From positions 224,001-288,000 of the forward strand of contig CBDANF010000003.1 in the NCBI GenBank assembly GCA_965197475.1: 64,000 nucleotides of DNA. The letters run 5' to 3'. Shown here one piece after another: positions 17,077-20,004 of the stretch; position 1 is the first letter of the stretch, and the number at the start of each line of letters is the position of its first letter. This stretch comes from Candidatus Poribacteria bacterium. GTDB lineage: Bacteria; Poribacteria; WGA-4E; WGA-3G. Made by a program: the position numbers and the translations under genes. The notes under the pieces are model-generated. The model did not search any database and was not told where the DNA came from. It saw only the letters and a program-made list of their open reading frames with translations.

Positions 17077-17679
17077 TGTTAAATTCATTGCTATATTCAA
17101 TATAGTTGCCCATGTAAAGGTCAAGGAAACCATCGGCATCGTAATCGCCCCACGCAATACCCGACCCGAATCCTGTATGTCCGATACCTCCTGCCCCGAT
17201 GTGAAACGTTTGAATGTCCCATCTCCTCTATTTAAATAGAAAACATTCGCTTTATAGTTTGTGACATAAAGATCAGGATCGCCATCGTTATCATAATCAA
17301 CAAAGGCACACCCCATACCCCAACCTGTGTCACCAACACCCGCGATGTCAGTTACATCTGTAAATGTGCCATCGCCGTTGTTTCGGTAGAGCACGTTTTT
17401 TGGAAGAGTTGCCCCCGGTTCAGGTCTCACTGCGGTGCTGTTGACAATGTAGAGATCAAGCGTGCCATTATTATCATAATCTCGCCAGGCAGCACCAGAG
17501 CCAACAAGTGCTGGCACCACACGGAGGTCAATACCACCGGCATGTTTGAAGCGAATTCCTGATGCTTCGGTAACATTTACAAACTGAATCTCTGCCGCGT
17601 GTCCGTACCAGACAAGCATTATGCTCAATAATATCAAACTTGTGAAAACAGATATGTACCTGTTCCGCATGTGAGGCAC
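17074..17679 (-). pseudogene. Truncated, frameshifted FG-GAP/ASPIC-UnbV (CRTAC1-like) protein
   Basis: DYDNNGTLDLY and DYDNDGDPDLY repeats. A -1 shift at the C run 17194-17197 continues as WGDYDADGFLDLY; homology then ends near the terminator. Confidence 0.8.
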
Positions 17680-17728
17680 CTTTCTTGTTCAGTGTCATTT
17701 TCCAAAGACATCAATATAAGATTTATTG

Positions 17729-17803
17729 ATACACATTTCGCCCCGCTGGGGCTAAGAGGGTTATTCACCAGCGTTTCTATACACATTTCGCCCCGCTGGG
17801 GCT
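17729..17803. repeat. Pair of 25-bp REP-like direct repeats
   Basis: ATACACATTTCGCCCCGCTGGGGCT at 17729 and 17779, each containing a GCCCC-GCT-GGGGC hairpin. Confidence 0.85.
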
Positions 17804-17977
17804 GCCTTTGCTGAACCTATAATAGTTTTTCTGTGGGTTACAACTTTGCACAAAACTCGTAGAAAAATAGAAAGGACTTGAGAACACAACATGAAACAGA
17901 CAGAAATTGTCCAAACTTTAGTAAAACTAAACGCAATAAGTAGTTTTGGACTTGCAACAAGCCATTGAATTTTTCAC

Positions 17978-18007
17978 TTGACTCTCTTTTCTCCCACATG
18001 TTATACT
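17978..18007 (+). promoter_or_regulatory. Sigma70 promoter inside the IS left end
   Basis: TTGACT-18 nt-TATACT with TGn extension; predicted +1 about 18013-18014. Confidence 0.7.
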
Positions 18008-18011
18008 ATCC

Positions 18012-18090
18012 TAACGTTGTTGGTAGGGAATCTCATCTGTCTCGCTTGAGGCAGTCCCTACCAAACCGAATGAGATCGGGAACAACGTTA
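18012..18090 (+). ncRNA. Candidate pseudoknotted structured RNA (HDV-like stem order)
   Basis: Stems 18012-21/18081-90, 18022-29/18055-62, 18030-36/18070-76 (crossing) and 18037-43/18048-54; it starts at the predicted TSS. Confidence 0.65.
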
Positions 18091-18150
18091 AGGTTAAACA
18101 ACGTGATCCTATAAACAAAACACGTACAACCCTTACCATAAGGGAATATC

Positions 18151-18387
18151 ATGGTACTTTTAGTGTGGCCACTTCTTGTATTTGCTTACTATAAGCAAAA
18201 ATACACGTTGAAAAACTGGCTTTTGTTTTTCGCTATCATTGGATCTATAGTCACTGTTCTCGGTGCTCGAGAATACGCATTAGTAGCATTGGTAGCCCAA
18301 ATTGTCGGCATACCTATTATTTTTCTGTCGGCAAGATTCACCGCTTGGTGTATCAAACGGTATGTAAACCGAAAGAAAACAGACTAA
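18151..18387 (+). CDS. IS passenger: small membrane protein (78 aa)
   Basis: AAGGGA RBS, 2-3 hydrophobic segments and a basic C-terminus. Confidence 0.65.
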   Translation: MVLLVWPLLVFAYYKQKYTLKNWLLFFAIIGSIVTVLGAREYALVALVAQIVGIPIIFLSARFTAWCIKRYVNRKKTD

Positions 18388-18435
18388 CCCAACAACGAGG
18401 TGCCCCTGTCCCCTCTAACTCACAAAGGAACTATC

Positions 18436-18771
18436 ATGTTAATCATATTTCCAAAACCTGAACAAATCACTGGATTTTGTCCATTAGCCGTAAATCTTAA
18501 TATTTATGATGAAATTGTGATCATCAAGAACAACGAATCAAACTTGTTCAATCTGACTCTGTTGAAACATGTAGACGCTCATGGATCGAACCAATCAACT
18601 TTTCTCTACAATTTGGGCATCTTCCAATCCGAGTCAGATTGCTATACATTGTTCCAAAATATTCTCGAAGCTTTGAATTCGGATCAAAAGACATTCGAGC
18701 TTCCGCCATCTGTGCTGCAAGCACCGCCTGAACCCGCGGATCATGCAAAGAAACGCCCTGGGTACCTTTAG
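18436..18771 (+). CDS. IS passenger: hypothetical protein (111 aa)
   Basis: AAGGA RBS before ATG 18436; converges on the transposase stop. Confidence 0.6.
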   Translation: MLIIFPKPEQITGFCPLAVNLNIYDEIVIIKNNESNLFNLTLLKHVDAHGSNQSTFLYNLGIFQSESDCYTLFQNILEALNSDQKTFELPPSVLQAPPEPADHAKKRPGYL

Positions 18772-18777
18772 TTTCAC

Positions 18778-19662
18778 TCATCTCATACTCTCATTAACAA
18801 ACTTATCAAAGATGCTGTCAATGCTCCTATAGTTATACTTGTAGCACGCCTCTGCGACATACAGGGGCGTATATTCAGTCCAATAGTGGTGATGTGAACC
18901 ATACCAAGCGCGTTTGAGAAGCGACCAAAACCCCTCAATCGTGTTTGTGTGGACATCACCGTCAACAAATTGCTCTTGATGATTGATGATATGATGCTTC
19001 ATATCTCTACCGAGTGCGAGATAAGCATTATATTCATCGGTCATCAACTCCGAATCCTGAACTTTCACGGCTCTTCGGATAAAGTCTAAAATAGTCCGTC
19101 CTGTCAAATCCCTTGCAAGTTGTGCTACAACTTTCCCACCGCGTTGGACAGCCCCGATGATTGCGTCTTTATCAGTGCCACGACCACGCTTGGCAGGCTC
19201 CGCATCTGCTTTCTTGTTCGGCTTGCGAGGTTTACCCCCGATGTAAGTTTCATCAGCCTCTATGATGCCTTGTAATAGCACGTTGCTACCTTTCTTTGCC
19301 ATTTCAGCACGGATACGAGTCATTATAAACCATGCAGTTTTCTGATTCAAGTCTAAATCACGACTCAACTGGTAACTGGATAACGACTTCTTCGCATTCA
19401 CAATCAACGAGATCGCCAAAAACCACTTCTGAAGTGCTATCTTTGTCCCGTGAAACACCGTGCCACACGTCACCTTGAAAGTAGCAGTGCAATCATGGCA
19501 TTGCCAGCGTCCGATGCGTCCCAATTCCGTCTCTGTCCGTTCCGCAACGTTTAGACTATCACAATGCGGACATCTTGGTTCACCACGCCACCGAATATAT
19601 TCCAAATGCTCAATACATGCTTCTTGGTCAGGAAAACGCTCCATTACCTTCAATAAATCCAT
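18778..19662 (-). CDS. IS1595-family DDE transposase
   Basis: Zn ribbon CPHC...CHDC, HTH (KTAWFI), EADETYIGG, LMTDE and HTNTIEGFW. Confidence 0.95.
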   Translation of the reverse strand: MDLLKVMERFPDQEACIEHLEYIRWRGEPRCPHCDSLNVAERTETELGRIGRWQCHDCTATFKVTCGTVFHGTKIALQKWFLAISLIVNAKKSLSSYQLSRDLDLNQKTAWFIMTRIRAEMAKKGSNVLLQGIIEADETYIGGKPRKPNKKADAEPAKRGRGTDKDAIIGAVQRGGKVVAQLARDLTGRTILDFIRRAVKVQDSELMTDEYNAYLALGRDMKHHIINHQEQFVDGDVHTNTIEGFWSLLKRAWYGSHHHYWTEYTPLYVAEACYKYNYRSIDSIFDKFVNESMR

Positions 19663-19681
19663 CAGATACTCCTTGAAATAG

Positions 19682-19792
19682 GAGTTGCTTTTTCTGACGG
19701 ATTTCTGATATAATACCAGATAAGATTAGAACCGTCAAAAAGCAACTCGCTTTTTGTGTTCATTTAGGGGGCTACCAACCCCCTACTTTCTT
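19682..19792. promoter_or_regulatory. Inverted repeat holding two overlapping, oppositely directed sigma70 promoters plus a downstream terminator
   Basis: Plus strand TTGCTT 19685 / TATAAT 19709; minus strand TTGACG 19738 / TATTAT 19715. Hairpin TAGGGGG-CTACCAA-CCCCCTA plus CTTTCTT at 19765-19792. Confidence 0.55.
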
Positions 19793-20004
19793 ATCTATAT
19801 TGTATCATAGTTGCACAATTAAAACAAGTGGAAATGTAGTCTACATCTGTGTTTGTAGCGATTTTTACATGTTTGTTGCAAGTCCAAAACTACTTATTGC
19901 GAAAATAAATACAAGAATATTTACGTTAATATGGTATTAGGTTGTGTTTATATTTCAAAAGTCAGGATATTCAAAAGGTATATTCTATTGCCTGTGAGTA
20001 TACG

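Follow-up and report, generated by a model that had tools for sequence, protein, structure and literature searches.

The DNA analysed here is a 64,000-nt stretch of a Candidatus Poribacteria genome, referred to below as the window. It contains an IS1595-family insertion sequence whose plus strand carries a promoter, a predicted structured RNA and two small passenger genes, followed by a transposase gene that runs convergent with the predicted RNA transcript. The element ends in perfect 29-nt terminal inverted repeats (17932-17960 and 19873-19901) and is present in the genome in six copies that are 100% identical, one of which (C3:590404-592373) retains an intact 8-bp target duplication. DDE domain, N-terminal zinc ribbon, inverted repeats and 8-bp duplication are those of the IS1595 family, for which passenger genes are already on record (Siguier et al. 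2009, as cited in PMC3129680). The features of the locus are as follows.

17932-19901: IS1595-family insertion sequence carrying the RNA; six identical copies in the genome
17978-17983 (-35), 17999-18000 (TG), 18002-18007 (-10), plus strand: sigma-70-type promoter, TTGACT-18-TATACT, 10/12 matches
About 18013-18015, plus strand: predicted transcription start, inferred from the promoter
18012-18021 (X1) with 18081-18090 (X'1), plus strand: P0 closing stem, 10 bp (sequence; fold; double changes at 10/10 pairs)
18022-18029 with 18055-18062, plus strand: P1, 8 bp (sequence; fold; covariation)
18030-18036 with 18070-18076 (PK'), plus strand: PK, 7 bp, crossing P1 (covariation)
18030-18036, plus strand: 5' strand of PK, a 7-nt bulge separating P1 from P3
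18037-18043 with 18048-18054, plus strand: P3 hairpin, 7 bp with one G-U, loop 18044-18047 (fold; covariation)
18066-18068 with 18077-18079, plus strand: P4 hairpin, added in this follow-up (covaries in relatives)
18069-18076, plus strand: P4 loop, 8 nt, made up of 18069 and the 3' PK strand at 18070-18076
18097-18105, plus strand: X'2, a second copy of X'1 and alternative partner of X1 (8 contiguous Watson-Crick pairs with X1)
18103-18114, plus strand: three-codon frame opened by a GTG inside X'2
18130-18144, plus strand: small hairpin over Shine-Dalgarno-like bases of passenger ORF 1 (read from sequence; this class only)
18151-18387, plus strand: passenger ORF 1, 78 aa, hydrophobic, without a family match
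18436-18771, plus strand: passenger ORF 2, 111 aa, of a small family that recurs behind this RNA
18778-19662, minus strand: IS1595-family transposase (DDE_Tnp_IS1595 PF12762, E 1.6e-36; Zn_ribbon_IS1595 PF12760, E 1.4e-9)

Neither of the two passenger proteins in the window matches any family in Pfam, PADLOC or NCBIfam. The 111-aa family has 61 representatives at E<=1e-3 among 1.84 billion proteins, and it is one of three recurring kinds of IS1595 passenger, together with a 42-aa basic protein, likewise without a family match, and DUF805 or other membrane proteins. "Cargo-less" IS1595 copies (L040 type) are deletion derivatives; in one of them, the N-terminus of the basic protein is fused to the C-terminal half of the 111-aa protein.

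The original prediction placed a pseudoknotted RNA at 18012-18090, directly behind an extended -10 promoter. Our promoter scan agrees on the promoter (TG present, 10/12 consensus matches), and the four stems it described, which take up 64 of the 79 nt, are all found in the sequence at their claimed coordinates. The nested part of the fold has an energy of -36.2 kcal/mol versus -18.5 +/- 3.2 kcal/mol for 200 dinucleotide shuffles (z -5.49), none of which was as good (0/200). The proposed set of stems was incomplete in one respect: a fifth helix, P4, was missed, and the linker thought to be single-stranded is not. In relatives, three to five bases of this supposed linker pair with bases just 3' of the PK' strand, so that the "linker" is a stem and the 3' PK strand lies inside a hairpin loop. 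With P4 in place and PK' in its loop, the architecture becomes a three-way junction with a 7-bp bulge-loop pseudoknot, and not the nested double pseudoknot of HDV ribozymes. Comparison with relatives indicates that the window RNA is a three-way junction formed by P0, a P1-P3 arm and P4, locked by a helix of 7 bp between the bulge of the arm and the loop of P4.

Evidence for this fold begins within the same genome, where related insertion sequences carry the same promoter followed by an RNA of the same layout with different stem sequences. A strict structural scan of the 5.7-Mb genome returned 28 instances (8 distinct variants), as against 1 in a block-shuffled genome. We then considered two MAFFT alignments to which no structure had been fitted. 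They had 99.3% and 94.2% of cells paired, with double changes in 17/35 and 18/35 pairs, and 0/500 shuffles were as good; sliding the partners by 1-3 columns left 34-45% of cells paired. A single MAFFT alignment of all variants was non-structural, and we therefore built two class-specific covariance models, R1 for the class of the window RNA (class 1) and R2 for a second class (class 2), with PK declared unpaired in both. Infernal was run with its filters off because the default filters missed most divergent variants. The alignment derived from R1 (71 hits, 67 distinct) has 97.8% of cells paired, compared with 37-42% in slid controls. The 67 distinct sequences show compensatory changes in 33/35 pairs. 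P3 is paired in 100% of cells, 35 of them G-U and none non-standard, and covaries at 7/7 positions; the pattern of its G-U pairs identifies the plus strand as the folding strand.

The pseudoknot, named P2 in the original prediction, does form by the same standard. PK is paired in 98.5% of cells of the R1-derived alignment and shows compensatory double changes at 7/7 positions among the 67 distinct sequences, even though it was unpaired in the search model. A parse of 100 model-hit loci that placed no constraint on PK succeeded for 91 and yielded 85 distinct cores with 55 distinct PK sequences between them. The two strands match at 7/7 positions in 62 of these cores, at 6/7 in 5 and at <=5 in 18, some of the last group probably being register errors of the parser. 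Mismatched PK partners reach 7/7 in 2.4%. On this comparative evidence we conclude that the pseudoknot is real.

Some dimensions of the fold are nearly fixed, and others vary freely. P1 is 8 bp in 58/59 copies, P3 is 6-9 bp (7-9 bp in 58/59) with a variable loop of 2-9 nt, and the junction before P4 and the strand after it each vary over 0-6 nt. The set of 95 distinct cores was gathered with a pairing-demanding descriptor and family-built models, so that P1 conservation and the counts of junction and loop lengths and of loop bases are partly by construction. The length of P4 is inversely related to that of the junction (Spearman -0.84, in part an effect of stem parsing), and their sum is held at 5-8. 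A P1 fixed at 8 bp together with this trade-off fits a ring of helices closed within one molecule.

Sequence, by comparison, is poorly conserved. No position is invariant across the family, paired or unpaired, and no unpaired base is common to both classes; of 38 variants, 17 have C, 12 have U and 9 have A as the single base that separates P4 from PK'. Within class 1 (29 variants), the loop base is A in 24/29 and P4 is followed by G or A in 21/29. PK and X1 are the most variable segments of this class, at 1.00 and 1.26 bits per position versus 0.17 for P1, and 20 distinct PK sequences occur in the 29 variants. The genome of the window alone holds 8 variants with 7 distinct PK sequences, one being shared by two near-identical copies of type H. 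The absence of an invariant nucleotide argues against a ribozyme or a small-molecule riboswitch.

We next asked how widely the RNA is distributed. Model R1 gives more than 400 matches, with hits in 100/151 Poribacteria genomes (88/131 of those of high quality) and 5/22 genera, and model R2 has hits in 32/151 Poribacteria genomes and 4 genera. A strict class-1 pattern, run over 185,579 species genomes, found 24 stretches: 21 labelled as Poribacteria, 2 in MAGs without such a label and 1 in Dehalococcoidia, which we set aside as merely a perfect hairpin. Rfam 15 returned no family at the gathering score for the window RNA and 13 further loci, nor in E-value mode on the scanned variants, and 17700-18400 had no match even at E<=10. 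Among the papers retrieved, our literature searches found no description of an RNA motif in Poribacteria, of a pseudoknot in IS1595 or of a conserved structured tnpB 5' leader. The window RNA thus belongs, on sequence comparison, to a large family without an Rfam 15 match that appears undescribed and that, as far as we searched, is found only in Poribacteria, which are bacterial symbionts of sponges.

The surroundings of the RNA are constant on one side and diverse on the other. Upstream, a promoter with a score of >=9/12 and with 12-22 nt (mode 14-15) between the end of its -10 and P1 is present in 59/61 copies, compared with 3.7% of random windows, and with this spacing the transcript should begin at P0. 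Downstream, the 95 distinct cores divide into 27 with tnpB directly behind the RNA, 28 in IS1595 elements, 5 before GIY-YIG genes, 2 with the 111-aa family only and 33 others. The share of IS1595 is inflated because the IS1595 transposase served as the route to about one quarter of the set; for the 77 cores that the RNA models alone had led to, the counts are 25 for tnpB, 15 for IS1595 and 5 for GIY-YIG. The original prediction had the RNA carried inside an IS1595 element. This is true of the window, as repeats, transposase and duplication attest, but the RNA also occurs outside IS1595, which is not its defining context. In IS1595-borne copies, the transposase gene is either convergent or co-directional. 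All 11 downstream ORFs that were tested as tnpB matched Pfam OrfB_IS605, and 10 had a Cas12f-like TNB domain as well; Pfam GIY-YIG was confirmed in one downstream ORF. Other genes found downstream encode DUF805, T5orf172, an HsdR-N-like protein and an FGE-sulfatase protein. Ahead of the promoter, the tnpB elements have a hairpin-like sequence that is distinct from the RNA and similar to their right end. PK or PK' 7-mers also occur 76-170 nt after the tnpB stop at 3/9 loci; their positions are inconsistent, and we treated them as chance. In metatranscriptomes, the element is present in four runs of one study, in contigs at a depth of ~4-20, some of which start upstream of the predicted start, so that DNA carry-over or read-through is possible. 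Taken together, the family looks like a portable promoter-plus-leader module placed before selfish or accessory genes, most often tnpB of IS605-family elements.

We then examined the sequence directly behind the fold. X'2, the second copy of X'1, lies 2 nt after P0 in class 2 and 7-13 nt after it in class 1. Pairing of X1 with its own 45-nt downstream stretch reaches at least 6, 7 and 8 contiguous Watson-Crick pairs in 39, 26 and 17 of 61 copies; with the downstream stretches of other copies, the same thresholds are reached in 5.8%, 1.2% and 0.2%. X1, X'1 and X'2 co-vary three ways. Of the 39 copies with a clear X'2, 24 have an ATG or GTG that starts inside it, where the background rate is 26% of windows. 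In seven of the 24 this is the start codon of tnpB, and a GGAG-type ribosome-binding site is located between the X'1 and X'2 strands; the remaining ones open frames of 1-49 codons. When the two folds were forced and compared (n=26), P0 was favoured by a median of 1.65 kcal/mol (range -1.8 to +7.3); in the window, the alternative fold is 1.8 kcal/mol above the P0 fold.

Our best reading of these observations is that the RNA is a bistable 5' leader that gates translation, which, judged on sequence, we hold about equally likely to be right or wrong. With transcription starting a few bases past the promoter, the window RNA would be the 5'-terminal domain of the mRNA. Pairing of X1 with X'1 would close the pseudoknotted domain and leave the start site free; were X1 to move to X'2, the start codon would be masked (in class 1, usually that of tnpB or of a short leader ORF). 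The compact domain would thereby set the share of mRNA that can be translated, and the 5' end, base-paired in both states, should also protect the mRNA. The balance might be shifted by a protein, by temperature or ions, by the ribosome or by another RNA. Among the functions named in the original prediction, its "riboswitch-like leader" comes nearest to this. Mutually exclusive pairing (X1:X'1 versus X1:X'2) is linked to expression signals, in that a co-varying alternative closing helix overlaps start codons; the ligand pocket that the term implies fails, as highly conserved unpaired pocket nucleotides were not found across the two classes.

Several observations bear on how general such gating could be. 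P0 is usually the more stable state, and the alternative helix may thus rarely form. A clear X'2 of >=6 pairs is absent from 22/61 copies. Class 2 supplies 15 of the 39 copies in which X'2 is clear; its X'2 lacks a start codon and pairs with a further copy of X in a small hairpin, so that the output there may differ. A short U-rich stretch follows this hairpin in class 2, and variant L126 has a terminator-like hairpin; we considered an attenuator for this class and did not call it because the class is too heterogeneous. In the window itself, the passenger gene starts 46 nt past X'2 behind its own small hairpin, and the X'2 frame looks vestigial.

The main rival of the translational gate, which we consider unlikely on present sequence evidence, is a passive 5' stabiliser or insulator: the fold would protect the triphosphate end from 5'-end-dependent decay and make expression independent of the downstream gene, with X'2 having no regulatory role. 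Such a role would accommodate the position of P0 at the predicted first transcribed bases in 59/61 copies, the greater stability that P0 usually has over the alternative, the wide variety of downstream genes and the lack of any unpaired base conserved between the classes. However, a plain terminal hairpin would suffice for it, and it leaves unexplained the junction, the pseudoknot, the fixed 8-bp P1 (58/59) and the co-variation of X1, X'1 and X'2.

The variability of PK and X1 raises a different possibility, namely that the RNA acts between molecules, through kissing dimers or pairing with another RNA, in copy-number or incompatibility control. We think this doubtful, and equally doubtful the idea that the hypervariable PK and X sequences serve as lineage-specific addresses. 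The segments that would make contact, PK and X1, are the most variable in class 1 (20 distinct PK in 29 variants), and PK diversity extends to 55 sequences in 85 cores and to seven among the eight variants of the window's own genome. Against this, the combined junction and P4 length of 5-8 and the 8-bp P1 fit closure within one molecule, an argument in which the conservation of P1 is partly an effect of how the copies were found. The promoter scan also places minus-strand sites at 19322-19958 and none near the RNA on the opposite strand. In its boldest form, a private RNA switch for each selfish element, read between transcripts of the same element by kissing or strand exchange, the proposal is again improbable. 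Were it true, tnpB and IS1595 elements would sense their own copy number and throttle translation, which would amount to RNA-only incompatibility or copy control on transposons, like the antisense control of plasmids, exerted from a self-complementary leader.

A self-cleaving ribozyme, whether an HDV-like variant or a new class, was a tempting call in the original prediction, and we now regard it as very improbable. Like many bacterial self-cleaving ribozymes, the present RNA is a compact pseudoknot associated with mobile and nuclease genes, and some unpaired bases of class 1 are fairly constant (A in 24/29; G or A in 21/29). Its order P1-PK-P3-P3'-P1'-PK' resembles that of HDV only if P4 is ignored, since PK' lies in the P4 loop and not 3' of a closed P4. 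The linker CGAA had been likened to the HDV C75 strand, but the C in question belongs to the 5' half of P4, which is paired and varies, and the base between P4 and PK', which may be C, U or A, cannot stand in for a conserved catalytic cytosine. The supposed echo of HDV L3 dissolves in the same way: P3 is a covarying helix of 7-9 bp with a variable loop, longer than the 3-bp P3 of HDV, and neither L3 nor P1.1 is present. We also looked for the G-U wobble at the cleavage end of P1 and found it in 1/67 sequences; 64/67 have G-C as the first P1 pair. Invariant positions are absent from the family. The suggested check against Rfam ribozyme models gave no match even at E<=10, and at the scanned loci no Rfam model for hammerhead, twister, twister-sister, pistol or hatchet matches. 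Contigs from RNA libraries cross the predicted cut at 18021/18022, a weak point in that contigs cannot quantify cleavage.

A small-molecule or ion riboswitch with the three-way junction as its aptamer is just as hard to credit. The architecture of a junction plus a distal contact recalls the purine riboswitch, and the alternative helix is of the expression-platform kind. However, the strands of the junction vary in sequence as well as in length (0-6 nt), no unpaired base is common to the classes, and the downstream genes have no common metabolic theme.

Less probable again is that the conserved entity is a single-stranded DNA structure for IS200/IS605-type transposition and not an RNA. Such transposition uses DNA hairpins, 27/95 copies lie in the left part of tnpB elements, and G-T pairs form in DNA too. 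But the same fold is found in IS1595 (DDE) elements, before GIY-YIG genes and elsewhere, copies sit 12-22 nt after a -10 box, and tnpB elements already have the separate hairpin-like sequence described above, which lies ahead of the promoter and is similar to their right end. Type III antitoxin RNAs (ToxI-like) are tandem repeats upstream of an endoribonuclease toxin gene; an RNA antitoxin for the two downstream genes, also among the original suggestions, is the least probable reading of all, for although a pseudoknotted RNA does stand immediately upstream of small genes without an assigned function, it is a single unit and no tandem repeat array, the downstream proteins match no toxin family (Pfam, PADLOC, NCBIfam), and other copies of the RNA stand before tnpB, GIY-YIG and a wide range of unrelated genes. 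A tRNA mimic or tmRNA was rejected, with 0 genes called by ARAGORN in 17600-18300.

Beyond correcting the ribozyme call, the analysis points to an apparently undescribed and abundant RNA family, present in at least 100/151 sampled Poribacteria genomes and often in many copies, with unusually clean covariation of its pseudoknot. Most often it is found as the 5' leader of tnpB, whose product is the RNA-guided nuclease that gave rise to Cas12; to our knowledge, little is known of how tnpB expression is controlled. The occurrence of the same module on IS1595 passenger cassettes and GIY-YIG genes suggests a portable unit of expression control that selfish elements exchange. If its closing stem does gate translation, it would be a compact natural switch whose specificity parts (PK and X) are freely variable, which would be of interest for RNA-structure work and design.

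Among known systems, a Poribacteria-1 RNA motif was reportedly listed as a candidate structured RNA from Poribacteria in a 2017 motif survey. Our full-text literature search for "Poribacteria-1" found no paper; the family described here is set apart from that motif only via Rfam 15, if the motif is included there, as no scanned locus matches. HDV-like ribozymes share with this RNA a compact pseudoknot, the order P1, PK, P3, P3', P1', PK', low conservation and a link to mobile elements. They differ in that here PK' lies in the P4 loop, P3 is 7-9 bp with a small variable loop, L3, P1.1, the conserved C and the basal G-U of P1 are absent, and an extra closing stem, P0, is present. The phi29 pRNA likewise combines a three-way junction with a complementary, covarying bulge and hairpin loop. 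Its loops pair between molecules to form a ring on the phage motor, whereas here the geometry suggests intramolecular pairing and the RNA is predicted to be an mRNA leader.

Two further systems resemble the leader in how it might switch. Aptamers of the purine-riboswitch type have a three-way junction, a distal loop-loop contact and a switchable closing stem, and the present RNA has a closing stem, two arms joined by distal pairing and an alternative pairing of the closing stem. In contrast to those aptamers, it has neither conserved junction nucleotides nor a plausible common ligand, its distal contact is a 7-bp bulge-loop helix, and it is the 5' closing strand, not the 3' one, that would switch. 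In the transposase-gene leaders of IS10, IS50 and IS200, an upstream segment masks the translation start in the form of simple hairpins, and pairing of X1 with X'2 follows the same start-masking logic. Here, however, the masking strand also closes a three-way-junction/pseudoknot domain, which gives two near-isoenergetic states, and the module serves tnpB as well as non-transposase genes.

Directly to the left of the IS (the IS1595-family insertion sequence) lies a further repeated sequence, with the following parts:

Window 17729-17924: multi-copy element, directly left of the IS.
Window 17729-53 and 17779-803: direct repeats of 25 nt each, spaced by 50 nt, in the left part of this element.

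The unit of about 125 nt that follows the two repeats is present in at least 20 copies in the window's own genome, at 90-99% identity. The depth of RNA-library contigs (assembled from metatranscriptome runs, where DNA carry-over or read-through is possible) is 100-170 at the element versus 4-20 within the IS, and the contigs of IS-free alleles part from the window sequence at 17924. Possible identities for the element are an abundant small RNA and a MITE. The six identical copies of the IS (G000 C3, a contig of the same genome) show 8-bp target duplications swapped among them, such that the left flank of one copy equals the right flank of another; the swapped flanks form two closed sets, one of three copies and one of two. 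This pattern points either to IS copies that have recombined with each other or to joins made through them during assembly. Beside one IS copy of a related Poribacteria genome lies an RNase P RNA gene (L040:1638-1981, 302 bits).

A second conserved leader segment, located 30-110 nt 3' of the RNA (the pseudoknotted leader) and ahead of the gene for the 42-aa basic protein, was found at L002, L024, L027, L040, L072, L108, L117, L135 and L141 (loci of relatives, as are the L-numbers below). It comprises two short, mutually alternative hairpins, and is still kept by cargo-less IS copies. The transposase gene has a leader of its own:

Window 19663-19830, minus strand: transposase 5' leader, structured and kept across IS classes.

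Here the transposase ribosome-binding site is base-paired within a hairpin (19668-19685, minus strand). A homologous segment, L112:1849-1995, matched the Collinsella-1 RNA in Rfam at 29.7 bits, which is below the gathering score of 35.

The RNA also precedes tnpB, an IS605-family gene. Several of these tnpB genes (L193, L212, L160, L154 and L195) are shortened to 147-152 aa, no longer have their start codon, or retain only a few N-terminal codons. The RNA and its promoter are intact at these loci, and at L154 the module now lies 5' of another gene, itself intact, with a 307-aa product. At L139, L144, L157-L162 and L025, the tnpB elements carry similar hairpin-like sequences at two places. One lies 5' of the promoter of the RNA; the other ends the stretch that follows tnpB, the presumed guide-RNA and right-end region. 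The two probably serve an IS605-family element without tnpA as recognition hairpins for its left and right ends.
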